NCBI GenBank assembly: GCA_016199185.1
Contig: JACQHE010000039.1
Location: 1-41,943 of the forward strand
Source: Candidatus Gottesmanbacteria bacterium
GTDB lineage: Bacteria > Patescibacteriota > Microgenomatia > UBA10105 > UBA927
Direction: 5' to 3'
DNA: 41,943 nt
Shown here: positions 12,477 through 32,073 of the stretch, in pieces
Layout of the letters: every line of letters begins with the position of its first letter
How positions within the stretch are numbered: the first letter of the stretch is position 1
Program-made: the position numbers and the translations under genes
The notes under the pieces: generated by a model
Seen by the model: the letters and a program-made list of their open reading frames with translations, nothing else
Database searches by the model: none
What the model was told of the DNA's origin: nothing

Positions 12477-12494
12477 ATGATACAATGAAGAGTG

Positions 12495-14714: not shown

Positions 14715-14715
14715 T

Positions 14716-15495: not shown

Positions 15496-15497
15496 CG

Positions 15498-15629: not shown

Positions 15630-15639
15630 TTTTGCGAAT

Positions 15640-16899: not shown

Positions 16900-17026
16900 A
16901 TTCTAAGCACTAAATCCTAAATCCAAAACAAATTCAAATGACCAAAATCCGAAATACCAAACGAACCCGTTTCGAACATTTGGATTTAGAATTTTGATAT
17001 TGTTTAGGATTTAGAAATTTGGATTT
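16897..17026. repeat. family-B word-repeat hairpin element, copy 2
   Basis: Starts at the phosphorylase stop codon and ends at the ATG of the next ORF. Same orientation and near-identical arms to 15498-15629. Confidence 0.8.
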
Positions 17027-17218
17027 ATGTTTAAGAATATCATAGCTCCTGTGCAAGCGTGGCTTCTGTCGCAAGGGAAGTGCGTGGGATGCGGCAGACT
17101 GCTCTCGAAAAAATCAGGGAAAGGTCTTGTGCGGGTGACCTGTCATTGCGGCCGCGTATATATGTACGACAGTGGGGGTGGCTCCTTCCGTCGTGCGACA
17201 CTTGATGAAATCAAATAA
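17027..17218 (+). CDS. small zinc-ribbon protein
   Basis: 63 aa with CVGC ... CHC. It overlaps the mltG start by 14 nt. Confidence 0.45.
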   Translation: MFKNIIAPVQAWLLSQGKCVGCGRLLSKKSGKGLVRVTCHCGRVYMYDSGGGSFRRATLDEIK

Positions 17219-18185
17219 ACCTTATCCGACGCGCTTTTTCCTCCTCCTGGCTGTGGCTGTGGCCCTCGTTGCTGCCGGCTGGCTCTGGTGGCGCGATGCG
17301 ATTTCCGCGGTCAACCCGGGGGACAGCTCGCCGCAGATTTTTGTCGTCAAGCGTGGCGAGGGGGTCAAAAGCATTGCCGGGAGGCTTGCGATGGTCGGCT
17401 TGATCCGAAGTCCGACGGGATTTTACATCCTCGTTAAGCTCATGGGACTCGAGCGCGATCTGCAGGCGGGTGATTTTCGGCTCAATCCGGCCATGGATGC
17501 CGGGAGTGTCGCACGGGAGCTTACGCATGGGACGCTGGACGTGTGGGTGACCACGCTTGAAGGGTGGAGAGTGGAGGAAATAGCTGCAAAACTCACGAAA
17601 GAGCTGGATATTCCTGAAAGCGAGTTTGTCAAAGTCGCCCGTGAAGGGTACATGTTTCCGGATACCTACCTCATTCCCCGTGACGCGACCGTAGGAGCGG
17701 TGGCAGCGCTTTTTACCGCTACATTTGATAAGAAAGTTGATGAAGCAATGCGCGCGGATGCCAAGAAAACCGGATTAACGTTTCCGGAAGTAATGACGCT
17801 TGCCTCAATCGTCGAGCGGGAGGGAAGAACGAATGATGACCGGCCGGTGATTGCAGGAATTCTTCTCAAACGTTTGAAAGCCGATTGGCCACTCCAGGCG
17901 GATGCGACCCTCCAGTACGCGCTCGGGTATCAGACGGGGGAGAAGACGTGGTGGAAGAAATCATTATATGAGGAGGACAAAAAGGTGAAGTCCCCGTACA
18001 ATACGTACACCAATCCGGGACTGCCGCCCGGGCCGATTGCCAATCCGGGCCTTTCGGCTATCAAAGCCGTGATTTATCCCAAGGAATCCGATTACTGGTA
18101 TTACCTCCATGATCCCGAAGGCGTCGTGCATTACGCCAAGACGCTCGCGGAGCATAATAGCAACATCGCCAAGTACCTTCGATAA
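17205..18185 (+). CDS. mltG: endolytic murein transglycosylase MltG/YceG
   Basis: Start chosen at MKSNKPY followed by a TM helix. Contains ASIVEREG, LQADATLQYALG and YNTYTNPGLPPGPIANPG. Confidence 0.9.
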   Translation: MKSNKPYPTRFFLLLAVAVALVAAGWLWWRDAISAVNPGDSSPQIFVVKRGEGVKSIAGRLAMVGLIRSPTGFYILVKLMGLERDLQAGDFRLNPAMDAGSVARELTHGTLDVWVTTLEGWRVEEIAAKLTKELDIPESEFVKVAREGYMFPDTYLIPRDATVGAVAALFTATFDKKVDEAMRADAKKTGLTFPEVMTLASIVEREGRTNDDRPVIAGILLKRLKADWPLQADATLQYALGYQTGEKTWWKKSLYEEDKKVKSPYNTYTNPGLPPGPIANPGLSAIKAVIYPKESDYWYYLHDPEGVVHYAKTLAEHNSNIAKYLR

Positions 18186-18202
18186 TCTTCAATACTTGAT
18201 AT

Positions 18203-19312
18203 ATGAGTGCCACCATCACATGTACCCACTGCGGAGCCCAAATAGAAATCACCAAGGCGCTCCTTCATGAAGTGGAGGACCAGGTCAAAGATCGCGTGTG
18301 GGAAGAGGCCACGAAAGCGGCGAGGGAGAAGGCGACTGCAGACATTTCTGTGGCGATGAAGGACCGCGAGAATCAAGTTGCGGAACTGCGTGAGCAGAAT
18401 AAATCGCTTACCGGGCAACTTCTCGATCTGAATAAATCCATCAGAGATCTGAAAAGTCAGGATGAAAAACGTTCACTCGAATATGAGAAGCGATTGAATG
18501 AAGCGATAGACAGAAACCGCGAAGAACTTGCCAAAACGTTTGGCGAGAAGTCCCAGATGGAAGTCCTGGAGCTCAAAAAACAACTCGAGGATACCAAAAA
18601 AGCCCTCGATGACGCCAAAAACAAGTTGGCGCAGAAGTCCCAGCAACTCCAGGGCGAGGTCCTGGAGCTTAATATCGAAGAAAAGCTAAAAAGCGCTTTT
18701 CTTTATGATGATATTGCCCCTGTCGGGAAGGGTACCCAGGGCGCAGACATCATTCAGACGGTCAAAAATCAGGCGGGCAAAGCTGCAGGTATCATCCTTT
18801 GGGAAACGAAACGCGCTAAGTGGACGCCCAGTTGGCTCCCGAAACTTCGTGAGGACGGACGGAATGCCGGCGCTACCATAGTTGTACTTATTTCTGAAAG
18901 CGTACCGGAGGACATAGGGACGTTTGCCATGCGGGAGGGAGTTGTCGTTACCACGTACCCATTTATCTTGCCGCTGGCGGAACTTTTGCGCCGGGCCGTC
19001 ATGCAGGTCGCCCAGGCCCGGTCGGTTGCCGCCAACAAAGACGAGAAGTTAGAGTTCTTGTATCAATATTTAAGCAGCGACACGTTCCGCCACCGGTTTG
19101 AAGCGTACGCGGAGACCATCAAGGGCATGGAAGAGGATCTGGCCACCGAGCGCCGGAGCATGGAGCGGCTCTGGAAGAAGCGCGAGATGCAGATCCGCCG
19201 CTCTTTGGATAACATGGCCAAGATGTACGGCGAGCTCCAGGGCATCATGGGCCCGGCACTTCCCGAGATCCGCGTCTTCTCCCTGCCGGAAGGATCAGAG
19301 GATTCTTCTTAA
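18203..19312 (+). CDS. DUF2130-like protein (zinc ribbon, coiled coil, PD-(D/E)xK-like C-domain)
   Basis: 369 aa. N-terminal CTHCGAQ, then a long Glu/Lys coiled coil, then GADIIQ ... ILWETKR (D...ExK). Confidence 0.7.
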   Translation: MSATITCTHCGAQIEITKALLHEVEDQVKDRVWEEATKAAREKATADISVAMKDRENQVAELREQNKSLTGQLLDLNKSIRDLKSQDEKRSLEYEKRLNEAIDRNREELAKTFGEKSQMEVLELKKQLEDTKKALDDAKNKLAQKSQQLQGEVLELNIEEKLKSAFLYDDIAPVGKGTQGADIIQTVKNQAGKAAGIILWETKRAKWTPSWLPKLREDGRNAGATIVVLISESVPEDIGTFAMREGVVVTTYPFILPLAELLRRAVMQVAQARSVAANKDEKLEFLYQYLSSDTFRHRFEAYAETIKGMEEDLATERRSMERLWKKREMQIRRSLDNMAKMYGELQGIMGPALPEIRVFSLPEGSEDSS

Positions 19313-19560
19313 AGCGGGAGCGGGCGTTGGGGTGACGGCGGCTCTTTGTGGGGTGGGGCGTGCTTGGCTTTTTCTTTTTCTTCAATGGTCTCGGCGACCA
19401 TGTACTCCAGAAGATCACTGCGGGCAATCGCGTAAATCCCGTGACCACCGGCAGACAGGTGCCGGGCTTTGAGCCTCTTGCCCTCGATCCACCGCCGGAT
19501 GGTCCCGGGATGTTTATGGAGAAACGTGGCCGCCTCCTCAACCGTCACAATATCGTTCAC
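19309..19560 (-). CDS. excisionase/MerR-type helix-turn-helix protein
   Basis: 83 aa. VTVEEAATFLHKHPGTIRRWIEGKRLKA is the excisionase-family HTH pattern. Pro/Lys-rich tail. Confidence 0.75.
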   Translation of the reverse strand: MNDIVTVEEAATFLHKHPGTIRRWIEGKRLKARHLSAGGHGIYAIARSDLLEYMVAETIEEKEKAKHAPPHKEPPSPQRPLPL

Positions 19561-19793
19561 AGCAGCTCATAGTATAACACGTGGAGAGAGATGTATACTT
19601 AATGCATGGACAGGACGCTGCGGATAACCATACGGGTAAGGAAATATCTTTGGAAAGACTTTGTCTACGACGTGTGTTATGTGCTGTATGCAACCATCAT
19701 GATTGCCAACGCGTTGTCGAAACGGTATCTTAAGTGTTCAATTCCCGCGCTTTGTCTTCGGATGCGCGTCCCTGTGGTGAAGTTAGGCGAGTC

Positions 19794-19919
19794 GATGGAT
19801 TCCATCCTAAAAAACTCCGTTCTGTTTTTTTTACTCATCTCGTTCGGAATTGCCGGGCTCTTGTATACGGCCGGCATCCCCATCATCCTCTTCCTCGCCG
19901 CCATGGGCCGGATACAGTA
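19794..19919 (+). CDS. possible 41-aa hydrophobic peptide
   Basis: MDSILKNSVLFFLLISFGIAGLLYTAGIPIILFLAAMGRIQ is the only protein-like part of the 104-aa track ORF. The ribosome-binding site is weak. Confidence 0.2.
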
Positions 19920-19937
19920 AGAAAAAACAGAATACCC

Positions 19938-19984
19938 CACCCCCTACATTTTGGCCGCAGAGGGGTATACAATAGGGCAGAATG
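19938..19984 (+). repeat. promoter-like direct repeat, copy 1 (ends in ATG)
   Basis: CACCCCCTACATTTTGGCCGCAGAGGGGTATACAATAGGGCAGAATG. It differs from 20738-20785 by one C indel and one G/A. Confidence 0.85.
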
Positions 19985-19995
19985 CTTCAAAATCT

Positions 19996-20652
19996 ATGGC
20001 ATATATTTTCCTCGATGAGAGCGGGGACTTAGGTTTTACTTCTGGGAAGAAGAACTCCGACTATTTTGTCATCACATTTATAGCCTGTGAAGACAAACGG
20101 GCGCTTGAGAAAGTGGTAAAAAATGTTCATCGATCTCTCCGGAAAAAGATCAAACGATTATCAGGTGGCGTACTTCATTGTTACAAGGAGAAGCCGAAAA
20201 CCCGCAGAAAAATGCTGTCGATAGTATCAGGTCTTGAGATTTCTGTAATGACGGTCTGTTTAAATAAGAGTCGTGTCCATACAAACCTCAAAGAAGAAAA
20301 ACACCTATTATATAACTACGTTGCCAATATCCTTCTTGATAGAATTTTGACCAAGAAACTTGTTAGTACGAGCGGAAAAGTTACGCTCATCGCTTCCAAG
20401 CGGGAAACCAATAGATTCTTAAACGAAAATTTTTCCTCTTATTTAGCAGATCAAGCTCGAAGGAATCACAAGATGAATCTGGAAATACTGATTCGGACCC
20501 CATCAGAAGAAAAAGGATTGCAGGCTGCCGATTTTGTCAGCTGGTCAATCTTTAAGAAATATGAAGAAAGTGATGATACCTACTACAAAATGATTAAAAA
20601 GAAGATTGTTGAAGAGAATATGCTTTTCGGCTCCAATACGACAAAACCCTAG
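19996..20652 (+). CDS. DUF3800 domain protein
   Basis: Start chosen at MAYIFLDESGDLGF, the family-typical opening. LQAADFVSW lies near the C-terminus. 218 aa. Confidence 0.75.
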   Translation: MAYIFLDESGDLGFTSGKKNSDYFVITFIACEDKRALEKVVKNVHRSLRKKIKRLSGGVLHCYKEKPKTRRKMLSIVSGLEISVMTVCLNKSRVHTNLKEEKHLLYNYVANILLDRILTKKLVSTSGKVTLIASKRETNRFLNENFSSYLADQARRNHKMNLEILIRTPSEEKGLQAADFVSWSIFKKYEESDDTYYKMIKKKIVEENMLFGSNTTKP

Positions 20653-20737
20653 GCGCTATTTACGAGGAACCATCCGGAACCCCACGTCTAGGGATTTACT
20701 TGTCACCTGTTATTATACACGAACCGTCAAGTCCGTG

Positions 20738-20785
20738 CACCCCCCTACATTTTGACCGCAGAGGGGTATACAATAGGGCAGAATG
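20738..20785 (+). repeat. promoter-like direct repeat, copy 2 (its ATG is the type IIG start codon)
   Basis: CACCCCCCTACATTTTGACCGCAGAGGGGTATACAATAGGGCAGAATG. TACAAT at 20769-20774 lies 8 nt before ATG 20783. Confidence 0.85.
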
Positions 20786-23700
20786 AGTAATTCCTTGCAT
20801 GATATAAAACAGTTGTGGGCGAAGGATAAAGATTACTACCGCAAAGTTGAGGTTGGGACGGGTGTGCAAAGTTTTGTTAAAAAGCTCCTCGAGTCTGAAG
20901 AGATATTTAATCTTAACGAAGGTAAACTATCTACAAATACTCTCATAAGAAAAAACGAATTCATTCAAGAAAAAGATGCGAAAGAGAGGCGGAGAGCTGA
21001 TTTCTATATTTACATTACCCAAGATATCGCCATACCCATCGAGGTCGAGTGTTACGGAAATATCAAGGCGGGAGTTATACAATTACTTAACTACCAAAAA
21101 GATTTCGACAAGCATTATGGAATACTTACTGATGGCTATGAGTGGCGATTCTATAATAACAACGCTTACAAAGCATTCACCTTAGACGACATTTTCGAAC
21201 ATATCGATCCTTTCCTCACTTTTTGGAAGGAATATATCAAACCAGAGTTTTACTATCTTTCATTCTTTGAAAGGACAGGACAACTCGCACTTATTGAAGA
21301 AACAAAACTTCATGTTGAAGACAATCGTCAACTTTTCTTTGAGGATATCACCAAGCTTATTCAGTCGTTTAAGAACAAGCTACAAATTGAGGGGTATCTT
21401 AAAGAAGTAGACAAAAAGACGCGAGAGAAACGAGCAATTGAGCTAACCTATGCCTACGTCATCCAATTTATTCTCTACAAAACATTGGTGGACAATGACT
21501 TCGACGATTTCACTAAAGAATTTGAAACAACCGTTACCAAGATACATGAGTCTCTAAAAGATAAGCGGTACAAGGATATCTTAGGTATTATCGAAGGCAT
21601 CTCGGCTAATATTTCAAGGAATGTCTATCGCCCATTCACTAAAGAGCAGGAGTTTATAAAAGAGAAGATTCAAGAGCTATATCATAGCCTTGAAAATAGC
21701 CTCTCTGACGTTTCCCCATGGCTTGATATCTTCATTTTTATCAAGAAATACAACTACGCTAACGTCAGAAACGAAATTTTTGGTTACATCTATGAAAACT
21801 ATCTAAAGGAACTTTACGAAGAAAGCAAGAAAGGTCAATACTTCACCGATCCGGCAGTCGTTAACTTTATGCTTGACCAAATCGGCTATACCCCAGAAGT
21901 TGTGGCAAGAAGAGCATCACAAGATCCCGATAGCGTCTCCATCATCGACCCCTCTTGTGGTAGCGGTACATTCCTTTACTCAGCAACGGATTCGATAGTC
22001 AAAGCCTTTCAAGGCGATAGTGAAGAAGCTTCCGAAAAGATTGAGAAAGTAGTTACTAATGGTGTTTTCGGACTCGACATTGAAGAGTTCCCTCTTTATT
22101 TGGCTGAGATGAATATCTTGATGCGTATGCTTCCTCTTATCATCAACGAAAAGTACAACAATCCCATTGACAAGAAAATTAAAGTTTTCAAAACAATGGA
22201 TTCAGTCTCTGAGTTTATGGACACCGCACTTAGAAATACTATTAACGATACAAATGTTGAGTTTGAGAAGAACAAGGGTCAGACATCGTTATTCTCGATA
22301 TTTGAGAAAAAGTTGAACCTTGGTTACTCAAGTTATGTTCGTGATGAAGATGACCTGCAGGAAATGAAAACGAGCCTTGAAAATCAGCCTGATGTTCCAA
22401 GACGACGTTTTGACTATGTTATCGGCAATCCACCTTATATTCCATATAACGAATGCGCAAAACAACGTGTGCTTATATTTGAATTGATGAAGCAGGGCAA
22501 GTCAAAATTAAGCGATATATATGGAGTAAATTTGCATAGTACTCCAACTCGACAAAAAAGAAATCCTCCAAAACCAAATTTTTATGCATTTTTCATAGCA
22601 CTTGGATTGGCCTTACTAAAAGATGAAGGCAAATTATGTTTCATTGTTCCTCAAACAATATTGACGGCTGGGGACTTAGATATTATTCGATATCACTTAG
22701 TTAAACTTACGACAATTGAGAAGGTTATTACATTTAGTGGGAAGATGTTTTTAGGGCGTGGGCTTAGACAAAATAAACCTGTTGCTACATCAAGTTTAAT
22801 CTTTGTTGTAACAAGAAAGGTTCCACCAACACTTCATGAAGTTGATATAGTGAATTACTTTGGTTCAGACATAGACATAGAAACTATATTTAGGAACATT
22901 AGAGAAGGAAAAAAAATTAAGAAAAAGAGAATCCTCCAATCAAAGCTGCTCCAAAGTATAGAAAATTGGAATCTAATTAGGTTAGATAAACAAACAATTG
23001 ACTTCTTAGAGGAATATAAAGCTAAAACCAACGATTTAAGTGAATACTACACTCACTCTTTAGCAGATTTTCACTATAAGAGTAACTTCTATTTTGACAT
23101 TGGCTACGAAATCAACGAGAAATTACTTTTACAAGAACCCTCAGTCTATAAATACCCAAAGTTGGACATCAATTTTTCGGTTAAAAAATGGAGAGGTTTT
23201 TGGCCGAACGAAAGAAATAAAAATTCCCGATATTTCATCAAGCTTCTGACCACTAATCAAGGCCATAATTTACTAGATAGTCCCTTCAAAGTATTATGGT
23301 CTTACATCAATCCGAATAAATTCCACTTTTCATCGGAACCTTTGATATGGGCAAGGAATCAAATATGTGCAATTGGTAGCAAAAACAAAGAAGAAATATT
23401 GTATCTTTTTTGTCTGCTCAACTCACCAATTACAAAACTGATTCTTTCATCTTTATTGAGGTCAGAGAATGAAAAGGATTTTTTGATCTCCATCGCTTCA
23501 GTTAAAGGGTTTATTCGTGTACCACGAATAACTGATAACAACAAACACCTCAAAAATTCAGTCATAAGTTTGACCGTAAAGCTCTTGGACTTAGAGAAAT
23601 TAACTCTTGCAGATTTAGTTGACTTCTCAGGGACCTTAAAACAAAAATTTGACAAAGTTAATGTTCAGGATAGCTATCTCGTTTTAGAAAAAGACGGCGA

Positions 23701-23992
23701 GAAGTTAGAGTTGCCAATCAAGAAGGATACATTATTAGTTAGTAAAATTATTGAGGCTCACTACACCAAAAAAGGTCTTGATTTAGAAGGTAAAACGATT
23801 ACCCTGTCGGAACTTGTATCACTACCCGCGATTGACTTTGAGAAACAAAAAAAGATCAAGGATACTATAGATGATTTAGTTTTTTGTCTCTATTTCAATA
23901 TAGATATACCGAAAAATAAAGTCACCGACGTAAAATTTATTAAATCCAGCTGCGAGAAGAATAAGTTTTATAAACTAGTAAACCATGAATAA
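20783..23992 (+). CDS. type IIG restriction-modification enzyme (PD-(D/E)xK N-domain + gamma-class N6-adenine methyltransferase + C-terminal specificity region)
   Basis: 1069 aa. N-terminal ADFYIY...IPIEVEC...QLLNY...GILTDGYEWRFY. MTase motif I IIDPSCGSGTFLYSA and motif IV VIGNPPYIPY. Strongly AT-rich. Confidence 0.85.
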   Translation: MSNSLHDIKQLWAKDKDYYRKVEVGTGVQSFVKKLLESEEIFNLNEGKLSTNTLIRKNEFIQEKDAKERRRADFYIYITQDIAIPIEVECYGNIKAGVIQLLNYQKDFDKHYGILTDGYEWRFYNNNAYKAFTLDDIFEHIDPFLTFWKEYIKPEFYYLSFFERTGQLALIEETKLHVEDNRQLFFEDITKLIQSFKNKLQIEGYLKEVDKKTREKRAIELTYAYVIQFILYKTLVDNDFDDFTKEFETTVTKIHESLKDKRYKDILGIIEGISANISRNVYRPFTKEQEFIKEKIQELYHSLENSLSDVSPWLDIFIFIKKYNYANVRNEIFGYIYENYLKELYEESKKGQYFTDPAVVNFMLDQIGYTPEVVARRASQDPDSVSIIDPSCGSGTFLYSATDSIVKAFQGDSEEASEKIEKVVTNGVFGLDIEEFPLYLAEMNILMRMLPLIINEKYNNPIDKKIKVFKTMDSVSEFMDTALRNTINDTNVEFEKNKGQTSLFSIFEKKLNLGYSSYVRDEDDLQEMKTSLENQPDVPRRRFDYVIGNPPYIPYNECAKQRVLIFELMKQGKSKLSDIYGVNLHSTPTRQKRNPPKPNFYAFFIALGLALLKDEGKLCFIVPQTILTAGDLDIIRYHLVKLTTIEKVITFSGKMFLGRGLRQNKPVATSSLIFVVTRKVPPTLHEVDIVNYFGSDIDIETIFRNIREGKKIKKKRILQSKLLQSIENWNLIRLDKQTIDFLEEYKAKTNDLSEYYTHSLADFHYKSNFYFDIGYEINEKLLLQEPSVYKYPKLDINFSVKKWRGFWPNERNKNSRYFIKLLTTNQGHNLLDSPFKVLWSYINPNKFHFSSEPLIWARNQICAIGSKNKEEILYLFCLLNSPITKLILSSLLRSENEKDFLISIASVKGFIRVPRITDNNKHLKNSVISLTVKLLDLEKLTLADLVDFSGTLKQKFDKVNVQDSYLVLEKDGEKLELPIKKDTLLVSKIIEAHYTKKGLDLEGKTITLSELVSLPAIDFEKQKKIKDTIDDLVFCLYFNIDIPKNKVTDVKFIKSSCEKNKFYKLVNHE

Positions 23993-23998
23993 TATTTA

Positions 23999-24018
23999 TT
24001 CCCCTATTTAGAGGGGAA
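23999..24018 (+). terminator. hairpin after the type IIG gene
   Basis: TTCCCCT-ATTTAG-AGGGGAA begins 7 nt after the stop codon. No clear T-run follows. Confidence 0.4.
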
Positions 24019-24120
24019 CTAGCTTTACTAATAGAAATGTTAGATTTTATGTTTGAAGCACAATTTAGAAAAATCAGCAAAGGTTGAATAATAGGATTAG
24101 ACATCGGCGTGTGTATTTGT

Positions 24121-24711
24121 ATGCAGACTTTTTCTAAAAGAAACAATCTTAAAGGTGAATATTCCGGTTATGGAAGAGCATCTCTGAGTCTTAGAAATAG
24201 ACTACTCCAATTATATGGACTCCCTTATAGTGGCAATGAATTCCACTTCGGTTTGGGTAACACCAATTGGATACATGAAATTGCTTTTAGCAAAGATTTA
24301 CAAATGCATTTTGGTCGAATAATTCCAATCGAAGCCTTTCGGGATGAATCACTAACAACTTATGATGAAATATTTGATTTTATTGAGCTTTATTATGCCC
24401 GAGCTGTTGAGGATTTAGATGGGCACAAAAGGTTAATACTTATTAGAGATATTGTCACAGCGTTTAATAGTTCTGGTTCTGTTTATGAATTCAGCAATGA
24501 TGGAGAAGTAATTTTGAGGATTGATGACGATACTGCTGAAAAAATCACCGAAGTAGACACCATTCTTAAGCCTTTTCCTGAGGCTCAGGAAGTGTATAGG
24601 GATTGCGCTAGAGGCTTATTTACTCGCTCAAAAGTCCCTAAAAACGTTGTGGGAGACATGTATGTAGTTTTTGAGGAATATCTAAAAAAAGTAGTCATCA
24701 AAGTACAGTAG
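24121..24711 (+). CDS. AbiJ-like abortive-infection protein, N-terminal part (frame broken at an A7 tract)
   Basis: MQTFSKRNNL...LSLRNRLLQLY matches the AbiJ N-terminal domain opening (FSxRN ... LRNxLW). The frame ends 6 codons after AAAAAAA at 24684-24690. Confidence 0.6.
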   Translation: MQTFSKRNNLKGEYSGYGRASLSLRNRLLQLYGLPYSGNEFHFGLGNTNWIHEIAFSKDLQMHFGRIIPIEAFRDESLTTYDEIFDFIELYYARAVEDLDGHKRLILIRDIVTAFNSSGSVYEFSNDGEVILRIDDDTAEKITEVDTILKPFPEAQEVYRDCARGLFTRSKVPKNVVGDMYVVFEEYLKKVVIKVQ

Positions 24712-24728
24712 ATAAAGCAATCCAACAT

Positions 24729-24935
24729 TTGCTGACTAAGCTATTATTACACCCAACTCAAATTTCAATAACTGAAAAATTAAAAGCCTACCGTGGAGAT
24801 GTTTGGGGACCGGCTCACGCAGGAAATAGCCCGAAGCCAGATGAAAGTGATGCTTTATGGTATTTGGAGTCGATTGTTGCGCAAATAAAATACATCGATC
24901 GTAAAATCAAGCAAGTTGAAGAAAAAGAAAATTAA
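24729..24935 (+). CDS. AbiJ-like protein, C-terminal Abi_C/HEPN part (other frame)
   Basis: This frame is open from 24675. KLKAYRGDVWGPAHAGN...ALWYLESIVAQIKYI fits the Abi_C/HEPN R-x-n-H-G core. There is no independent ATG or SD (the track start is a TTG). Confidence 0.55.
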   Translation: MLTKLLLHPTQISITEKLKAYRGDVWGPAHAGNSPKPDESDALWYLESIVAQIKYIDRKIKQVEEKEN

Positions 24936-24997
24936 CCACCTATGCACATCAACCCTGTGGGTTAGATAGGTTTTTGGATATGTTTTTGCACAAAAGC

Positions 24998-25870
24998 ATG
25001 ATGAAAGAAATGAAACAGACGAAATACAAATTGGCAATTTTTGAAGGTCGGAAGATCCGCCGCCATTGGGATGCGGAGAAAGAACTCTGGTATTTTTCAG
25101 TGGTGGATATTGTGGCTATCCTAACAAATCAGCCAAACTTTCAGTTAGCCAGAAATTACTGGAAAGTATTGAAAAGTCGTTTAAAAAAAGAGGGGAGTGA
25201 AGCGGTTTCAAAATGTAACCGGTTGAAAATGGAGGCGGAAGACGGAAAATTAAGAGAAACTGACGCGGCGGATGTAGAAACGATTTTGCGATTAGTGCAA
25301 TCAATACCCAGCCCCAAAGCCGAACCGATAAAGTTATGGTTGGCGCGTGTGGGCTACGAACGAATCCAGGAAACAACAGATCCGGAAAAGTCCATAAACA
25401 GGGGCAGAATGAATTGGCAAAAAATGGGCCGGAGTCAAAAGTGGATACAGCAGCGAATGATGGGACAGGAAATCCGCAACAAGTTAACGGATTACTGGAA
25501 ACATCACGAAGTAAAAGAACAGGACGAATACGCGATTTTGACAAATATTATTCATGAGGAATGGAGCGATTTTTCAGTAAGGGAACATAAAGCAATTAAA
25601 AGGCTTAAAACAGAAAACCTCCGCGACCATATGACGGACGCGGAACTGGTATTTACTGCCCTTGCGGAACTTTCCACGCGACAAATTGCCGAAACAATGA
25701 GATCAAGAGGTTTGGAAGAAAATAAAATTCCTGCTAAAAAAGGCGGCCGGATTGCTAAAAACGCCAGACTAGAGTTGGAGCAAAAAACCGGAAAGAAGGT
25801 CATCAGCGGGTCAAATTATCTTCCGCAAGGACGAAAAAGATTGTGGAAATCAACCCGAGGGGTTAAATAA
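24998..25870 (+). CDS. Bro-N / DinD-like DNA-binding protein (paralogue 2)
   Basis: KYKLAIFEGRKIRRHWDAEKELWYFSVVDIVAIL plus the shared C-terminal region with 1036-1857. The start is uncertain (ATG at 24980, 24998, 25001 or 25010). Confidence 0.6.
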   Translation: MMKEMKQTKYKLAIFEGRKIRRHWDAEKELWYFSVVDIVAILTNQPNFQLARNYWKVLKSRLKKEGSEAVSKCNRLKMEAEDGKLRETDAADVETILRLVQSIPSPKAEPIKLWLARVGYERIQETTDPEKSINRGRMNWQKMGRSQKWIQQRMMGQEIRNKLTDYWKHHEVKEQDEYAILTNIIHEEWSDFSVREHKAIKRLKTENLRDHMTDAELVFTALAELSTRQIAETMRSRGLEENKIPAKKGGRIAKNARLELEQKTGKKVISGSNYLPQGRKRLWKSTRGVK

Positions 25871-25916
25871 TTTTTTGATTCTGTTTTGCATAAAAACATG
25901 GAAGGAGAACGGACGT

Positions 25917-26051
25917 ATGAAAAGGAAAAAATATGGAACGCAAAAACCAGTGTGCGGGGTGTACGGCAGCGGCCGGAAGACTTTGCCTGCGTACACTTAT
26001 ACAACGATCCGCGCCAAGGACCGCCAATTCATTAGAGCAAAACTGATATGA
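25917..26051 (+). CDS. 44-aa basic upstream ORF translationally coupled to the nucleotidyltransferase gene
   Basis: GGAAGGAG lies about 10 nt upstream of ATG 25917. The peptide is MKRKKYGTQKPVCGVYGSGRKTLPAYTYTTIRAKDRQFIRAKLI. Its TGA overlaps the next ATG (ATATGA). Confidence 0.3.
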   Translation: MKRKKYGTQKPVCGVYGSGRKTLPAYTYTTIRAKDRQFIRAKLI

Positions 26052-26893
26052 AGCCAAAACAACCAACCGATAAGAAGTCCACGAACGATACTATCATTGC
26101 AACACTCAGAGAGATCGAAAAGACCCATCAGGTGACTATCCTGTATGCGGTAGAGTCCGGAAGCAGGGCGTGGGGATTTGCATCGAAAGACAGCGATTAT
26201 GACATTCGATTCGTGTATCACCATCCTCTGGAATGGTACATCAGCATTGAGGATAAGACCGACGTCATTGAACACCCGATGATCGGCCCGTTGGATATTT
26301 GCGGGTGGGACATACGAAAGGCGCTTGCACTCTACAAAAAATCAAACCCCCCGCTTTACGAATGGCTTGTTTCTCCTATTGTCTATAAAGAAAGAGGCAC
26401 GTTTGCCCAACAGTTACGGTCGCTCATGCCAACGTACTACGCGCCAATCGCAAGCATCCATCACTATTTACATATGGCAAGAGGGAACTATCGACAATAC
26501 CTGCAAGGTAGCGTCGTTTGGGTCAAAAAGTACTTTTATGTTTTGCGCCCCATTTTTGCGTGCATGTGGATTGAACACTACAGCATCCAGGCGCCAATGG
26601 CGTTTATAACAATGCTTGAGAGACTTCCCCTTGATGAGAATGTGAGGGAAGAGGTTTGGCGCCTCTATGAGAGAAAAAAGTTAGGGGAAGAGTTAGATAA
26701 AGGAAACAGAATAGCCGTTCTTAACGATTTTGTAGATGAAAAAATTCAGTATTTTGAAAAATACGCACAAGAAATAAAACCAGAACGGAAGATAAAACTT
26801 GATCCATCACGGTTGGATCGCATCTTATATGACACGTTAAACCAGACTCCCTGGAGCCGCCTACGCCTGCACTCCAAGGAGAATATATGCTAA
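26048..26893 (+). CDS. pol-beta superfamily nucleotidyltransferase (YcgL / PF10127-like)
   Basis: 281 aa. ESGSRAWGFASKDSDYDIRFVY is the GS...DxD NTase core, followed by a helical C-terminal domain. Confidence 0.75.
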   Translation: MKPKQPTDKKSTNDTIIATLREIEKTHQVTILYAVESGSRAWGFASKDSDYDIRFVYHHPLEWYISIEDKTDVIEHPMIGPLDICGWDIRKALALYKKSNPPLYEWLVSPIVYKERGTFAQQLRSLMPTYYAPIASIHHYLHMARGNYRQYLQGSVVWVKKYFYVLRPIFACMWIEHYSIQAPMAFITMLERLPLDENVREEVWRLYERKKLGEELDKGNRIAVLNDFVDEKIQYFEKYAQEIKPERKIKLDPSRLDRILYDTLNQTPWSRLRLHSKENIC

Positions 26894-27030
26894 GGGTTCC
26901 TACCGGCATTATGGAAATTTACATAGATTTGAGAACTTCATGATCCTCAATAAAACCATCCTCATCCCGGAAGATGATCAGACGCTCGAGTTTTTGCTCT
27001 TTGTCTCATCCGCTGTTGTCCCCTCATGCT

Positions 27031-27060
27031 TATTCTCAAATTCTTAAGAATATGAGAATA
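27031..27060. promoter_or_regulatory. 30-bp near-perfect palindrome (candidate operator) abutting the tspO ATG
   Basis: TATTCTCAAATTCTTAAGAATATGAGAATA has 14 of 15 symmetric pairs. It contains four ATTCT/AGAAT half-sites. It overlaps a possible -10 (AAGAAT, 27046-27051) and the A of the ATG. Confidence 0.55.
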
Positions 27061-27551
27061 TGAATTGTATGATCAAAAATGGCAAACTGTTGGTGGTGGC
27101 ACTTTTCGTACCGCAGCTTGCCGGTGCCATCGGCTCTCTCTTTACCGTACCGGCAATTTCGGGCTGGTATGCGGGTCTTGACAGACCAATGTTTTCTCTG
27201 CCTAATTGGGTCTTCGGTCCGGTATGGACGACGCTTTTTCTTCTCATGGGGGTCGCGTTGTATCTCATTTTATTGATACCAAAAAGCGGCGGGAAGGGCC
27301 GGCAGAGGAAGCAGGCAGTCATTCTATTTGGCGTACAGCTCGTCCTTAATACGCTATGGTCGTTTATTTTTTTCGGGTTGCATAGTCCGGGATTAGCCTT
27401 TGTGGAAATCATTTCGTTGTGGATTGCGATTGCCGCCACGATAGGTTCGTTTTATCGATTGTCACGGATAGCTGCGTATTTGTTGATACCCTATATATTG
27501 TGGGTAAGCTTTGCGGCGTTCCTCAACTACGCCATTTGGAGACTCAATTAA
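27060..27551 (+). CDS. tspO: TspO/MBR tryptophan-rich sensory protein
   Basis: 163 aa with five TM helices. Contains FGPVWTTLFLLMG, LNTLWSFIFFG and YILWVSFAAFLNYAIWRLN. Confidence 0.85.
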   Translation: MNCMIKNGKLLVVALFVPQLAGAIGSLFTVPAISGWYAGLDRPMFSLPNWVFGPVWTTLFLLMGVALYLILLIPKSGGKGRQRKQAVILFGVQLVLNTLWSFIFFGLHSPGLAFVEIISLWIAIAATIGSFYRLSRIAAYLLIPYILWVSFAAFLNYAIWRLN

Positions 27552-27611
27552 CGGCACAATGCACGCTAGACAACTGCAGGGGACAGAGGGGTTTTGATAT
27601 ACAATACCCCC

Positions 27612-28592
27612 ATGGTGAATTTTTGGCATCAGCTGGCGCTTCAGACGAAACCCTTTCTGACTCTTGCCCCCATGGACGGGGTGACGGACCGGGTGTTCCG
27701 GAAAATGATCGCCGGTACGGCCAAGCCCGACGTATTCTTCACCGAGTTTACCAATACGGAAGCGCTTACCTCCCGGGGCTATGAGAAAACGATCCACCGC
27801 CTCGCGTACTCGGATGGGGAGCATCCGATTGTGGCCCAGATTTGGGGGACGGAGCCTAAGAACTTTTCCGTGGTAGCCCGGCTGGTCCGGGACTTGGGCT
27901 TTGACGGCATTGACATCAATATGGGCTGCCCTGACCGGGCGGTCATGAAGATGGGCTCCGGAGCATCCCTCATCGATAACCCCCCGCTTGCCGCGGCAAT
28001 GATCGTCGCCATCAAACAGGGCGCTCCCGGCATGCCGGTGAGTGTGAAAACACGCATCGGGGCGACCAAAGTGGTGACCTTGGATTGGATACGCTTTCTC
28101 CTCGCCCAAAAGATAGACGCGCTCACCGTCCACGGGAGAACGGCAAAAGAGCTATCGAAAGTCCCGGCGCATTGGGAGGAAATCGGCAAGGCCGTCCGGC
28201 TCCGGGATGAAATAGCTCCCGGTACCGTCATCATCGGCAACGGAGACATCCTTACCCAAATCCAGGCGGCGCAGGCTCATGGGACGTACGGCGTGGACGG
28301 CGTGATGATGGGCAAGGCAGTATTCCAAAATCCCTGGGTGTTTGAGCGGCCGGTCAGGCAGCATAGCGCCGGCGAGTCGCTCGCGCTTCTGGTCCGGCAT
28401 GCCAAACTGTACGCTGATGCCTACCCAGGCGTACATCGGTTTGCTCCGCTTAAAAAATACTTCAAGATCTACGTCCGGTCGTTTCATGGAGCAAATGTGC
28501 TTCTGAAGCGTCTCATGGAAACCGAGAATTTTTCCGAGGTGGAAGAGCTCGTGAAGCCGGAGTTGGACAGGTTGCATGCGTCGGACGGGTGA
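27612..28592 (+). CDS. dus: tRNA-dihydrouridine synthase
   Basis: Start at MVNFWHQL, 6 nt after TACAAT (27600-27605). Contains LAPMDGVTDRVFR, VSVKTRIG and LTVHGRT. Confidence 0.9.
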   Translation: MVNFWHQLALQTKPFLTLAPMDGVTDRVFRKMIAGTAKPDVFFTEFTNTEALTSRGYEKTIHRLAYSDGEHPIVAQIWGTEPKNFSVVARLVRDLGFDGIDINMGCPDRAVMKMGSGASLIDNPPLAAAMIVAIKQGAPGMPVSVKTRIGATKVVTLDWIRFLLAQKIDALTVHGRTAKELSKVPAHWEEIGKAVRLRDEIAPGTVIIGNGDILTQIQAAQAHGTYGVDGVMMGKAVFQNPWVFERPVRQHSAGESLALLVRHAKLYADAYPGVHRFAPLKKYFKIYVRSFHGANVLLKRLMETENFSEVEELVKPELDRLHASDG

Positions 28593-28632: not shown

Positions 28633-28725
28633 ACCCTTACTTCAATAGCCTGAAAGAGGCGAACGCTCATTGTTTGCTTCTTTTTGTCGTTCACTTTTAT
28701 CGGCTCGCGAGGGGAATTATCCGAA

Positions 28726-31700
28726 ATGGCAAACGACGACAGCATTATTCAGCGCGTTTCCTGGGGAAAAGCGTATACGAACCTTCCACCTCTTGATCTT
28801 GTCCTCGTGCAACGCGAGTCGTACCAATGGTTTTTGGAAACCGGCATCCGCGAACTTCTGGATGAAGTGACGCCTGTTGTGGACTTTACCGGAAAAAACT
28901 GGGAGCTTATCTTCGGTGATTATTACTTCGGCAAGCCGCGACTGTCCAGCGAAACCGCGCGGGAGAAGGGCTTGACCTTTGACATGCCGCTGAAAGTGAC
29001 CACCACACTCACCAACAAACAGACCGGTCACCGCGTGACGCAGGAAGTCTTTTTAGGCGATATTCCGGCGATGACGGATAACGGCACATTCATCATCAAC
29101 GGCATCGAGCGATGCGTGGTCAATCAGCTGGTGCGTAGCCCCGGCATTTATTTTACGGGCCAGGTGGATCCCTCCACCGGCAGGATGCTCTATACGGCGG
29201 AGATCCGGCCGCTTCATGGTAGCTGGCTTGAGTTTGCTATCACCAGAAACGACGTCCTCATGGTCAGGATCGACCGAAGGCGTAAGTTTCCGGCGACCAC
29301 GTTTCTGCGGGCTATCGGCGTCTCTGACGAAGCGGAGATACGAAAGGTTTTTGCCAACGTAGATACGGATAAAGAACACTCCTACATCGACGCGACCATC
29401 AAGAAAGACCTCACGACGTCGCAGATTGAGGCTACGCTTGAGCTCTATAAAAAACTTCGCCCTGGTGAGCCGATTGTTCTGGATAACGCGCAGGAACTCT
29501 TGCGCACCATGTTTTTTGATTACCGCCGGTATTCCCTGGAGCGTGTAGGCCGCTATAAGATGAACAAGAAACTGGGGGTGTCCGTGCCGCTGGACCGCGA
29601 GCACTGGGTGTTGACCCGCGAAGATATCATCGGCAGCGTGGGTTACCTCATCGGGCTTGCCAACGGCAACGGCGACGTGGATGACATAGACCACCTGGGC
29701 AACCGAAGGGTCCGGCGCGTGGGGGAGCTGGTTGCAACCAACGCCTTTCGCGTGGGGCTTCTCCGGCTCGAGCGCTCAATCCGCGAGAAGATGAGTCTGG
29801 CCGGCGCAGCGGCGACTGACCTTACGCCCTCGCAGCTTGTGAACGCCCGGCCTATTATTGCCGCCATCAACGATTTTTTCCGCACGAGCCAGCTATCTAC
29901 CATTCTTGATCAGACGAATCCGTTGGCGGAAATCGACAACCTCCGTCGCTTGACCGTTATGGGCATCGGCGGCATCAGCCGGGAGCGCGCGTCGTTTTCC
30001 ATCCGAGACATCAATGCAAGCCAGTACGGCCGGATCTGCCCGGTGAGAAGCCCAGAAGGACCAAATATTGGCCTTGTTACCTATATGGCCCTCTATACCA
30101 GGGTCAATGAGTACGGATTTTTGGAAGCACCGTATCGGAAAGTGGAAAAAGTGGAAGAGAGTGGGCACGCGCGCGTGCGCGTCACCGACCAGATCGTGTA
30201 TTTGTCTGCAGATGATGAACAGCATCACCATGTGACTCACGCGAGCGTGGCGATGGATGATCGTGGATATCTAACAGACGAACGCGTGCCGGTCCGATAC
30301 AAAGGAGAGTTTTTGGAAGCGGAAACCAAGCTTGTTGAGTACATCGATGTGGTACCGCGTCAGGTCGTCGGCGCCCCCGCGTCGCTTATTCCGTTTTTAG
30401 CGCATGATGAAGCTAACCGCGCGCTCATGGGAACTCACATGCAATCACAGGCGGTGCCGCTGGTCGCGCCGCAGACGCCGGTCGTGGGGACGGGTATGGA
30501 AGCATCTATTTCCCGCGCCATGGGCCGCGTGGTCGTTGCGCCGGATGATGCGGTTGTCGCGTTTGCCGACGCAAAGAAAGTGACGATTCGGATGAAAGAT
30601 GCTCAGGAGGAGACCTACGCGGTTGAGAAGTTCAAGCGCACAAGCCAGTCTACCAGCTACAACCAGCGCGTGGTGGTGCGTACCGGCGATAAAGTGAAAA
30701 AGGGCGCAATCCTCATCGACGGCCCATCCAGCGAAAACGGAGAGCTTGCGCTGGGAACCAATGTTGTGGTGGCATACATGAGCTACGATGGACTAGGCTA
30801 CGAAGACGCCATCGTCATCTCCGACCGGCTGGTCAAGGAAGACCAGTTCACCTCGATTAACATCGAGGAGTACGAAGCAAGCGTCGTGGACACCAAGCTT
30901 GGGGTAGAGGAAACGACGCGGGACATCCCCAACGTGGGGGAGGAGGCGCTTCGCAATCTGGACGAGGATGGCATCGTGGTCGTGGGCGCTGAAGTCGGCC
31001 CCAATGACATTTTGGTTGGCAAGATTGCGCCGAAAGGTGAGACGGAACTTACTGCAGAAGAGCGGCTGCTTCGGGCAATTTTCGGCGAGAAAGCGCGAGA
31101 AGTGCGCGATACGAGTCTTCGGATGCCGCACGGGGAGCGCGGGACGGTCATCGACGTCAAGATTCTGGATAAAGATGCCGGAGACGAGCTCGAGCCGGGG
31201 ACCAACAGAAAAATTGTCGTGAAAGTCGCCCAGATACGCAAAGTAGTCGTGGGAGACAAGCTCGCCGGCCGCCACGGCAATAAAGGCGTCATCAGTAAAA
31301 TCGTGCCCCAAGCAGACATGCCGTACCTAGCCGATGGCACCACGGTAGATCTCATCATTTCTCCTTTGTCTGTCCTTTCTCGTATGAACTTGGGGCAGCT
31401 TCTGGAGTGTCATTTGGGCTTGGCGGCTCAAAAACTCAACATTCGGGTGGGACTGCCGGTGTTTGAGCCGGTTAAAGAAGACTACATTGTCCAGAAGCTC
31501 CAAGAAGCCGATCTTCCGATGGGCGGCAAAACGACGTTGTTTGACGGCAGGACGGGCGAAGCGTTTAAAGAGCCCATTGTCGTGGGTATCGGCTACATCA
31601 TGAAGCTTATCCACATGGTGGAAGATAAAACCCACGCGCGCTCGACCGGCCCGTATTCTCTGGTCACCCAGCAGCCTCTCGGAGGCAAAGCCCAGATGGG

Positions 31701-32073
31701 AGGACAGCGGCTGGGGGAGATGGAAGTATGGGCGCTTGAAGCGCATCGTGCTGCGCATGTCCTTCAGGAAATGTTGACGATTAAATCCGACGACGTCGTG
31801 GGCCGAGCAAAAGCATTTGAGGCTATCGTTAAAGGCACGGATATCCCGGCATCCACAGTTCCGGAATCTTTTAAAGTGCTGGTCAAAGAGCTCCAGGCCT
31901 TGGGGCTTCATGTTATTCCCACCGGCGTGGTCACTGCCAAACCCAAGCCGATTTCCGATCAAGCCCAGCCCAGCAGCGCCGCTCTTGCTGACGATCAGAC
32001 GAAGAAACAGGCAGCGGAGCTTGCCGCAGCAAGCGTGGTCGAAGCAGTCGTAGAGGAGAACACCAATGGATAA
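28726..32073 (+). CDS. rpoB: DNA-directed RNA polymerase subunit beta
   Basis: Start at MANDDSIIQR. The sequence is diagnostic throughout (e.g. GRHGNKGVISKI, NLGQLLECHLG, GGQRLGEMEVWALEA). Confidence 0.97.
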   Translation: MANDDSIIQRVSWGKAYTNLPPLDLVLVQRESYQWFLETGIRELLDEVTPVVDFTGKNWELIFGDYYFGKPRLSSETAREKGLTFDMPLKVTTTLTNKQTGHRVTQEVFLGDIPAMTDNGTFIINGIERCVVNQLVRSPGIYFTGQVDPSTGRMLYTAEIRPLHGSWLEFAITRNDVLMVRIDRRRKFPATTFLRAIGVSDEAEIRKVFANVDTDKEHSYIDATIKKDLTTSQIEATLELYKKLRPGEPIVLDNAQELLRTMFFDYRRYSLERVGRYKMNKKLGVSVPLDREHWVLTREDIIGSVGYLIGLANGNGDVDDIDHLGNRRVRRVGELVATNAFRVGLLRLERSIREKMSLAGAAATDLTPSQLVNARPIIAAINDFFRTSQLSTILDQTNPLAEIDNLRRLTVMGIGGISRERASFSIRDINASQYGRICPVRSPEGPNIGLVTYMALYTRVNEYGFLEAPYRKVEKVEESGHARVRVTDQIVYLSADDEQHHHVTHASVAMDDRGYLTDERVPVRYKGEFLEAETKLVEYIDVVPRQVVGAPASLIPFLAHDEANRALMGTHMQSQAVPLVAPQTPVVGTGMEASISRAMGRVVVAPDDAVVAFADAKKVTIRMKDAQEETYAVEKFKRTSQSTSYNQRVVVRTGDKVKKGAILIDGPSSENGELALGTNVVVAYMSYDGLGYEDAIVISDRLVKEDQFTSINIEEYEASVVDTKLGVEETTRDIPNVGEEALRNLDEDGIVVVGAEVGPNDILVGKIAPKGETELTAEERLLRAIFGEKAREVRDTSLRMPHGERGTVIDVKILDKDAGDELEPGTNRKIVVKVAQIRKVVVGDKLAGRHGNKGVISKIVPQADMPYLADGTTVDLIISPLSVLSRMNLGQLLECHLGLAAQKLNIRVGLPVFEPVKEDYIVQKLQEADLPMGGKTTLFDGRTGEAFKEPIVVGIGYIMKLIHMVEDKTHARSTGPYSLVTQQPLGGKAQMGGQRLGEMEVWALEAHRAAHVLQEMLTIKSDDVVGRAKAFEAIVKGTDIPASTVPESFKVLVKELQALGLHVIPTGVVTAKPKPISDQAQPSSAALADDQTKKQAAELAAASVVEAVVEENTNG

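Follow-up and report, generated by a model that had tools for sequence, protein, structure and literature searches.

An AT-rich conflict-gene stretch of a Gottesmanbacteria contig as the probable filled state of a variable mltG–rpoB slot

The window analysed here is a 42-kb contig (41,943 nucleotides) of the chromosome of a Candidatus Gottesmanbacteria bacterium, a member of the Microgenomates within the Patescibacteria or candidate phyla radiation (CPR). From about 19.9 kb it carries an AT-rich stretch that encodes a DUF3800 protein, a type IIG-like restriction-modification enzyme, an AbiJ-like protein, a Bro-N/DinD-like protein and an RlaP-family nucleotidyltransferase. It is proposed, with a probability of about 0.75, that this island occupies a variable slot flanked by the core genes mltG and rpoB, and that its mosaic is made up of single-gene cassettes acquired independently of one another, most of them with their own short promoter or leaderless-type start. 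The slot with its variable occupancy, the empty sites, the turnover of cargo, the discordant identities of the cassettes, the breakpoints in promoter regions and the lack of mobility genes are direct observations on the window and its relatives. A first-pass annotation of this DNA had described a defence-like island whose arrival was unclear; the ordinary answer to that question would be a lineage-wide variable slot between core genes.

The mltG–rpoB slot and its occupants

Relatives of the locus were found by a metagenome scan with MltG, which gave about 80 loci at 55–88% MltG identity; the L-numbers used below denote metagenomic relative loci or contigs. The gene order AlaRS–p740–sortase–ThyP (thymidine/AMP phosphorylase)–MltG agrees with that of the window in about 80 relatives. 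The left core anchor of the slot is mltG (YceG; 17172..18185, plus strand; Pfam YceG, E=1e-76), whose upstream synteny is the same in all of these, and the right core anchor is rpoB (28684..32073, plus strand; NCBIfam rpoB). The pair rpoB–rpoC lies downstream wherever a relative's contig extends far enough, and rpoB is kept 3' of the slot in 27 relatives. Across these 27 loci the distance from MltG to rpoB runs from 84–87 nt in L162 and L159, which are empty, through intermediates of 0.4–4 kb, up to 8.6 kb in L124; in the window it amounts to 10.5 kb. Since the gap is variable and includes empty sites, the AT-rich stretch appears to represent, in occupied form, a slot between two core genes that varies across the lineage. 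The comparative search for an empty site, which the first-pass annotation had recommended, was therefore successful in these metagenomic loci; a search of GTDB genomes through DusB was rejected, synteny being lost at 45–56% identity. Within the upstream backbone, p740 (12492–14714, plus strand, 740 amino acids) adjoins the sortase gene in all relatives, and its only family signal is a weak match to Baseplate_J (E=9e-5).

Two genes next to mltG belong to the backbone of the sub-lineage rather than to the island cargo. The DUF2130 gene (18203..19312, plus strand; guanine-plus-cytosine content, GC, 0.532) lies immediately upstream of the island, as had been noticed, and matches its Pfam family with 193 bits. 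Convergent to it is a gene for an excisionase/MerR-type helix-turn-helix protein, HTH_17 (19309..19560, minus strand). The DUF2130 protein has 87–96% amino-acid identity in L087, L088, L164 and L169, and the HTH_17 protein 76–88% in the same four loci, while the neighbouring cargo differs in each. It is because both genes have host GC and are conserved in relatives with other cargo that they are read as backbone, and the inclusion of HTH_17 in the gene set of the island, as first made, does not hold. The description of this protein as an excisionase-type HTH is borne out by the Pfam HTH_17 match (E=1.8e-10), but the excisionase model TIGR01764 stays under its cut-off (25.3 against 28.8 bits). 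Between HTH_17 and the island, orf104 (19606..19920, plus strand) encodes a small predicted membrane protein; its GC is host-like, it has no Pfam or NCBIfam match, and a homologue with 54% identity is found in the L088 slot directly 5' of a Bro-N gene.

The closest relatives keep DUF2130 and HTH_17, and the genes that come after HTH_17 differ in each of them. The slot of L087 holds genes for an HTH_20-like protein, SNase, RadC, a MazG-like protein, a Schlafen-group-3 (SLFN-type) helicase, HNH and Mrr; that of L088 holds beta-CASP, HTH_20, Fic, DUF4112, KilA-N, the orf104 homologue and Bro-N. In L164 a Fic gene stands ahead of HTH_17, followed by DUF3800 (85% identity) and RadC, and the slot of L169 is filled with DUF4112, RadC, a MazG-like protein, a helicase, an HNH-like and an AbiJ-like protein. 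L176 and L177 contain a type IIG homologue (74%), followed by RhuM and, further on, cyclophilin–TspO–rpoB. Taken at the level of gene content, the cargo seems to be one pool of single genes that is reshuffled at the slot position.

One recurring group of genes in these loci stands apart from this pattern. A RadC–MazG-like–Schlafen-group-3 helicase block is found in L087 (6762–10459), L165 (8496–11381) and L169 (2070–5743), and a 232-amino-acid HNH-like protein is encoded 3' of it in L087 and L169, with a PD-(D/E)XK gene in this place in L165. Unlike the genes of the window, the block looks like a genuine conserved multi-gene module, and it may be a candidate system.

The composition of the window agrees with what had been estimated by eye, namely a drop from about 19.9 kb to roughly one-third G+C between 20.8 and 24.9 kb, with flanks of more than one half. 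The computed GC is 0.357 at 20800–24900, against 0.520 in the left flank (1–19308) and 0.548 in the right flank (27552 to the end). The segment 19940–24972 has a GC of 0.367, compared with 0.531 ± 0.025 (minimum 0.485) for windows of equal size elsewhere on the contig; the tetranucleotide distance peaks at 0.57 over 20–25 kb and is at most 0.20 across the rest of the contig, and the GC at third codon positions is 0.28–0.45 in the island genes and 0.55–0.72 in the genes of the flanks. The step starts at about 19.94 kb, which is the first copy of a 45-nt repeat described below, and the interval of HTH_17 and orf104 before it (19309–19939) has a host-like GC of 0.52. Within the island the GC is tiered: 0.36 in the type IIG and AbiJ-like genes, 0.41 in DUF3800 and 0.43–0.46 in Bro-N, RlaP and TspO. 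These tiers, together with the discordant identities of the cassettes to their relatives, argue that the island was not acquired as a single unit.

Cassettes of the AT-rich stretch

The clearest transferred unit is the AbiJ-like cassette (24035..24972, plus strand), a segment of 938 nt with 97.1% DNA identity to L169. The DUF2130/HTH_17 backbone shared by the same two loci is only 84.8% identical, and this difference indicates that the cassette was probably exchanged recently. At its left edge some 60 nt are left over from the 3' end of the HNH-like gene found ahead of the cassette in L169 and L087, and the alignment of the window with these two loci places this remnant at 24035..24095 (plus strand); L087 departs from the alignment exactly at the -10-like box, and the right edge falls within the Bro-N promoter region. 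Cassette breakpoints thus lie at gene junctions and in promoter regions. The gene itself (24121..24935, plus strand) combines an AbiJ_NTD4 domain with a HEPN-like region. The first-pass call of an AbiJ/HEPN-like gene stands in so far as AbiJ_NTD4 scores just below its gathering threshold (31.3–32.2 bits against 34, with nearly the whole profile covered) and the fold matches to HEPN proteins are weak; the gene was not recognized as split by a frameshift into open reading frames (ORFs) 24121–24711 and 24729–24935. Homologues are 260–271 amino acids long and tblastn puts the window gene in two frames, the -1 frameshift being located at a run of seven A (24684–24690) that is a run of eight in the intact L169 copy. 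The same seven-A run is present in two independent assemblies (L001 and L002), and the window copy is probably inactive. In defence genes, a frameshift at a homopolymer can be phase-variable.

The C-terminal domain of the intact AbiJ-like protein was compared with known structures, and the fold search returned 2hsb (probability 1.0), 3o10, 1ufb (template modelling score 0.66) and HepT toxins, all of them weak (E at least 0.06). R225 and H233 are invariant in the family, which corresponds to an R-x7-H spacing. The gene appears to share with AbiJ-family abortive-infection proteins the AbiJ_NTD4-type N-terminus, a helical C-terminus that weakly matches HEPN proteins, an invariant Arg...His pair and a stand-alone position in defence-type neighbourhoods; it differs from them in a Pfam score just under threshold, in having R-x7-H rather than the canonical Rx4-6H, and in the frameshift of the window copy. 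A second disrupted gene is present on the contig at some distance from the island: the Ldh_2 (malate/L-lactate dehydrogenase) gene at 6502–7496 (minus strand) is broken into two ORFs, of which 6891–7496 corresponds to profile positions 1–183 and 6502–6870 to positions 216–333, and is either a pseudogene or a sequence error.

The largest cassette encodes a single-chain type IIG-like restriction-modification enzyme of 1069 amino acids (20783..23992, plus strand), and here the earlier call is confirmed by the Pfam domains N6_Mtase and Eco57I, together with a weak HSDR_N_2 match (E=0.005). A PD-(D/E)XK-like domain is predicted at its N-terminus, followed by a gamma-class N6-adenine methyltransferase and by a C-terminal region that varies between homologues. 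The methyltransferase motifs DPSCGSGTF (motif I, FxGxG-like) and GNPPY (motif IV) are invariant in the family, which is collinear, about 1010–1100 amino acids long and represented by more than 875 strong homologues in Microgenomates. In the N-terminal domain D73, P85 and E87 of the motif D73...P85xE87 are invariant in the family, and the third position is usually E and, in a minority of members, K; the window enzyme reads E-V-E-C, a motif common to its subclade. Inactivation of the nuclease by E-V-E-C instead of ExK was considered and is unsupported, as this is a subclade-wide variant and E-x-E is the majority form of the family.

Several features of this cassette concern its borders. The GC of the gene is 0.35 in the window, L175 and L176, against flanks of 0.47 in L176 and 0.52–0.55 in the window. 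DNA homology to the type IIG relatives begins 33–50 nt inside the coding sequence, which implies that the promoter, the leader and the first codons are local, and the interval 22806–23253, within the C-terminal region, aligns poorly to L176. Just 3' of the stop codon a hairpin (TTCCCCT-N6-AGGGGAA; 23999..24018, plus strand) is a possible terminator. In L175 (3296–5099) two tightly packed genes come after the closest type IIG homologue (83%), one for a 377-amino-acid protein without family and one for a 226-amino-acid protein with a weak HNH_5 match; neither occurs in the window or in L176, and the two may be partners specific to that lineage. The enzyme resembles characterized type IIG/IIL enzymes of the Eco57I, MmeI and BpuSI types in its single chain of about 1070 amino acids, its predicted PD-(D/E)XK-like N-terminus, its gamma N6-adenine methyltransferase and its variable C-terminus. 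It is very divergent from them: its best sequence matches in the PDB are BREX PglX/BrxX, with E around 1e-5, and most members of its family have a nuclease motif D...ExE(C/K/R), not D...ExK. As to BREX, the PglX models match only the methyltransferase core (41 bits against a cut-off of 500), and PglZ, BrxC and BrxL were not found in the island.

The DUF3800 gene (19996..20652, plus strand) encodes 218 amino acids, and its product, like the type IIG enzyme, is identical to an NCBI protein of a Candidatus Gottesmanbacteria contig; the family call made at first sight is secured by a Pfam score of 56 bits against a cut-off of 21. Its start is the ATG at 19996 (MAYIFLDESGD), in agreement with the NCBI annotation, and not the ATG within the repeat. 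Residues D7-E8, D115, E137 and Q176xxD179 are invariant in the alignment. The AlphaFold model (predicted local distance difference test 87, predicted template modelling score 0.87) has the archaeal RNase HII 1eke as its best PDB match (E=6.5e-6) and suggests an RNase HII-like fold and a putative nuclease, which agrees with the RNase H2-like fold predicted for DUF3800 in previous work (PMC7736814, PMC10910872). Homologues are abundant in Microgenomates (more than 1400 at 57–85% identity), and elsewhere the gene is found in conflict islands with Fic, MazG-like, RadC, toxin-antitoxin, restriction-modification and reverse-transcriptase genes. In two unrelated Microgenomates islands, L165 (6001–7664) and L229 (4209–6636), two divergent DUF3800 paralogues with a mutual identity of about 25% stand close together in tandem; in L229 an unannotated gene of 271 amino acids, not of the AbiJ-like family, lies between them.

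The window protein shares the Pfam family, the RNase H2-like fold, the N-terminal DE motif and a conflict-gene neighbourhood with the DUF3800 proteins of type VII retrons and with the Cas12a2-associated TPR-DUF3800 proteins (TPR, tetratricopeptide repeat; PMC7736814, PMC10910872). It differs from them in standing alone, as a protein of about 212–218 amino acids in an island with no reverse transcriptase, Cas12, CRISPR array or TPR gene, and in retaining the QxxD motif that the retron-linked members lack. RNA motifs associated with DUF3800 (DUF3800-I to XI, PMC5737381) were not detected beside the gene: a permissive Rfam scan of 19200–27200 (E up to 5), in which these motifs were included, gave no match. 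In contrast to the AbiJ-like cassette, the DUF3800 cassette (19978–20705) is 82% identical to L164 by blastn, where the shared backbone is 79–80% identical, and because these values are close it looks vertically inherited as judged from sequence identity. The match includes a 53-nt 3' flank (20653..20705, plus strand) that was co-inherited with the gene. A small mobile element carrying DUF3800 between repeats was ruled out, as the 82% identity tracks the backbone and P0034 stays in one stable context across 24 contigs.

A 45-nt direct repeat with the appearance of a promoter and leader brackets this gene. Copy 1 (19940..19984, plus strand) and copy 2 (20741..20785, plus strand) each contain CCCCT...AGGGG followed by TATACAAT and then AGGGCAGAATG, and they are identical at 44 of 45 positions; translation of the type IIG gene starts at the terminal ATG of copy 2 (20783). 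The duplicated promoter that DUF3800 and the restriction enzyme had been said to share is consequently real as a repeat, but the ATG of copy 1 is out of frame with DUF3800, where it opens an upstream ORF of 16 codons (19982–20032), and only the downstream copy gives a used start codon. The type IIG relatives do not share this promoter. A leader very similar to the repeat, GATACAATAGGGCAGAAATG, precedes the RadC gene directly 3' of DUF3800 in L164, and weaker relatives of it lie 5' of DUF3800 in L164 and of Bro-N in L088. The folding z-score of the repeat is about 0 and the flanks of DUF3800 fold no better than shuffled sequence, which with the Rfam result rules out a structured RNA or a DUF3800-type non-coding RNA. 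A widespread junction or attachment (att) element was also rejected, since across 2.1 Mb of related loci no locus but the window and L088 has the strict motif, weaker in L088, and L164 adds only the leader core. The repeat would best be viewed as having arisen when one of a family of similar short promoters or leaders was recently duplicated.

The -10-like box TATACAAT of this leader is placed 8 nt 5' of the type IIG start (20767–20785) and 7 nt 5' of the ATG at 27613 of a Dus gene (27598–27615), and the 8-mer occurs four times in the window against 0.7 expected. A distance of only 7–8 nt between the box and the start codon points to mRNAs that are leaderless, or nearly so, in this organism.

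The right-hand part of the island begins with the Bro-N/DinD-like gene (24974..25870, plus strand), which was correctly named in the first place: it matches Pfam Bro-N (E=1e-5) and, over residues 17–287, the PADLOC candidate PDC-S13 (E=8.8e-119). A second Bro-N/DinD-like paralogue (1036–1857, plus strand) lies in DNA of normal GC directly 5' of FtsK (1854–4001); its identity is 46% with the island copy and 57% with the one in the L088 slot. What had been called a coupled upstream ORF of the nucleotidyltransferase is a putative ORF of 58 amino acids (25875..26051, plus strand) without family match, which overlaps by 4 nt the start of the RlaP-family pol-beta nucleotidyltransferase gene (26048..26893, plus strand). 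The latter covers the full profile of Pfam RlaP (PF10127) with 288 bits, in keeping with the predicted link to RNA repair; proteins of this family add one or two nucleoside monophosphates to damaged RNA 3' ends (PMC12776372). Family searches found no RNA ligase partner in the island or the contig, and a weak match to the 2'-5' RNA ligase superfamily lies at 9128–9802, 16 kb from RlaP. The right side of the slot is completed by a TspO gene of intermediate GC (27060..27551, plus strand; Pfam TspO_MBR), a homologue of which (51%) stands directly 5' of rpoB in L176 and for which an exact look-up gave no record, and by a Dus-family tRNA-dihydrouridine synthase gene of host GC (27594..28592, plus strand; probable start at ATG 27613), which scores below the cut-offs of NCBIfam DusB and DusA. 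The Dus gene lies inside the MltG–rpoB interval here, and elsewhere, not syntenic with rpoB, in all relatives examined; the presence of TspO and Dus in the interval implies that the slot also receives host-GC genes by rearrangement.

Arrival of the cassettes and competing explanations

The lack of an integrase, transposase, tRNA or terminal repeats noted in the first-pass annotation extends to the whole contig. Neither an integrase nor a transposase or recombinase was matched in any annotated or alternative-frame ORF of the 42 kb, the contig has no tRNA or tmRNA and no Rfam match, and no repeats were found at the borders, the only strong repeat being the one that brackets DUF3800 internally. 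The proposed mosaic could have been built by homologous or short-homology recombination after DNA uptake, with cassettes gained or replaced through conserved DNA on either side (DUF2130/HTH_17 to the left, TspO/rpoB to the right) and through the similar promoter or leader segments between cassettes. Patescibacteria have been reported to carry genomic islands with restriction-modification systems, as well as competence and homologous-recombination genes (PMC12455944), and it is the presence of these genes that makes recombination after uptake plausible. The 45-nt duplicate might then be a scar or by-product of a recombination event by which a newly arrived type IIG coding sequence came to stand behind a leader already in place. 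Each gene would most likely act alone: the type IIG enzyme would methylate self DNA and cut unmodified DNA, the HEPN and DUF3800 proteins would act as nucleases and RlaP would repair RNA ends, these roles in defence being predictions for the individual genes.

A dedicated, integron-like capture of cassettes has also been considered, in which recombination sites would be embedded in the promoters, or HTH_17 would serve as a directionality factor for a recombinase encoded elsewhere. Junction elements and HTH_17 would then form a Microgenomates cassette-capture system, either independent of an integrase or with a recombinase acting in trans. Cargo does always begin right after HTH_17 in close relatives, breakpoints coincide with promoter or leader segments, the 45-nt duplication contains an internal inverted repeat and a similar leader is present at another cassette junction, in L164. 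Nevertheless, the strict element is confined, within the 2.1 Mb, to the window, with the weaker form in L088 and the partial one in L164; the sequences of the other junctions are unrelated, the structure z-score of the repeat is near 0 and no recombinase is linked to the locus. Compared with an integron, the window has no integrase, its cassettes have their own promoter-like boxes and no junction element is conserved across loci. Homologous recombination between similar promoters is the simpler account, and both a capture mechanism and a system of this kind seem improbable.

No more probable is the entry of the island as a single integrative element, such as a genomic island, an integrative and conjugative element or a prophage, which has since degenerated and lost its integrase, with HTH_17 as the leftover excisionase. 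This would fit an excisionase-type HTH at the left edge, albeit one below the TIGR01764 cut-off, the sharp step in composition at 19.94 kb, and the Bro-N and KilA-N type genes, which are common in phages. HTH_17, however, has host GC and is kept with DUF2130 in relatives with other cargo, no att-like border repeats, tRNA or integrase are present on the contig, and the tiered GC and the 97% identity of one cassette against 85% for the backbone do not suit a single entry. Close homologues of the island genes were not found on the viral contigs of IMG/VR, by which a phage origin was ruled out.

The first-pass annotation had further drawn attention to two gene combinations, DUF3800 with the type IIG enzyme and a HEPN-type gene next to a nucleotidyltransferase. 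They could be new multi-gene defence systems, the former co-regulated by twin promoters and the latter consisting of a HEPN RNase and RlaP as a toxin and antidote or as a damage and repair pair. The 45-nt leader duplicated 5' of both DUF3800 and the type IIG gene speaks for the one; for the other there are the precedent of HEPN-MNT toxin-antitoxins, the match of the HEPN model to HepT/MntA structures and the repair of damaged tRNA ends by RlaP. These pairings were compared with nine independent contexts of the genes, four for DUF3800 (L164, L165–168, the P0008 contig and L229), two for the type IIG enzyme (L175 and L176–180) and three for the AbiJ-like gene (L169, L170–172 and L173–174), and neither pairing is repeated in any of the nine. 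All four DUF3800 contexts are without the enzyme and both type IIG contexts are without DUF3800, so that on six independent contexts this combination was ruled out as a system; the ATG of the repeat is moreover out of frame for DUF3800. As for the second pair, the Bro-N gene lies between its members, the AbiJ-like gene is frameshifted and none of the three AbiJ-like contexts contains RlaP, and it was ruled out as well. With HEPN-MNT (type VII) toxin-antitoxins the window shares a HEPN-fold protein and a pol-beta-fold nucleotidyltransferase within one island; here, however, the genes are non-adjacent, their pairing does not recur in other contexts, the reading frame of the HEPN gene is broken, and the nucleotidyltransferase belongs to the RlaP RNA-repair family and not to the MNT family. 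Judged from this small sample of gene contexts, neither of the proposed multi-gene systems is supported, and systems of this kind must be regarded as very unlikely.

A chimera made during assembly or binning, in which DNA from an organism of low GC was fused to a GC-rich contig, is a scarcely credible origin of the AT-rich segment: the GC step is large and contigs of independent assemblies do end at, or close to, the repeat and the borders of the island, but independent contigs reproduce the window over 16991–25106 with the step included (the Logan contig L001 covers 19010–25039, from the GC-rich DUF2130 through the step into Bro-N, with 1 mismatch, and L083 covers 16991–19399), and the same slot holds the same families in relatives, with DUF3800 in L164, the AbiJ-like gene in L169 and the type IIG gene beside TspO–rpoB in L176.

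The filled-slot reading itself has points that weigh against it. In distant relatives the slot contains accessory and housekeeping genes, among them a DUF2207 membrane protein in 19 loci, as well as CDGSH, RRM, PGA_cap, radical SAM, cyclophilin and PD-(D/E)XK genes and, in L124, a metabolic operon; these point to a general variable region and not to a dedicated defence locus. The apparent richness in conflict genes is a descriptive observation on the window and its closest relatives, the distant ones holding accessory or metabolic genes. The sample of contexts is small, with 2–4 independent loci per gene. The part with Bro-N, RlaP, TspO and DusB has no counterpart in the close relatives compared, and independent assembly support ends at 25.1 kb, which leaves the right-hand junctions at 25.1–27.6 kb outside it. 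The adjacency of orf104 and Bro-N in L088 had been taken as proof of a nested insertion, and this argument is weakened, as the L088 Bro-N is closer to the other paralogue of the window (57%) than to the island copy (41%); composition is therefore the main ground for supposing that the DUF3800, type IIG and AbiJ-like genes were inserted between orf104 and Bro-N. Finally, the recombination mechanism is read from end states only, and the defence function of the island genes is a prediction.

Relation to known hotspots and significance

Bacteria of the CPR have tiny genomes, mostly without CRISPR, and how they maintain anti-phage genes is poorly known. Variable or defence hotspots between core genes are already known from other bacteria, and the slot described here is one in a CPR bacterium. 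In E. coli (PMC10121019) and P. aeruginosa (cDHS1 and cDHS2, PMC10250203), core-gene defence hotspots have been described, some of them without an identifiable mode of mobilization. The window has in common with both a fixed slot between core genes whose occupancy ranges from empty to more than 10 kb, a cargo of restriction-modification, Abi, toxin and nuclease genes that turns over among close relatives, and, often, the absence of mobilization genes. It differs in that its host is an ultra-small member of the Patescibacteria and its slot is mltG–rpoB, in that the slot of distant relatives holds ordinary accessory genes and not defence genes, and in that the cargo consists almost entirely of single-gene cassettes with very short leaders; the relatives were also sampled below population scale.

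For the biology of this organism, the impression of two new multi-gene systems is not borne out, and the locus illustrates the turnover of cassettes in a reduced genome without an integrase. The slot is a defined place at which CPR metagenomes can be mined for candidate defence genes, including the DUF3800 (more than 1400) and type IIG-like (more than 875) families. With a capture system, if the unlikely reading were true, CPR bacteria could exchange single-gene defences at one slot of the chromosome despite their reduced genomes. Taken together, in this Microgenomates lineage a single slot beside the essential rpoBC operon appears to exchange nucleases, a restriction-modification enzyme and toxin-like genes without visible mobile-element machinery.

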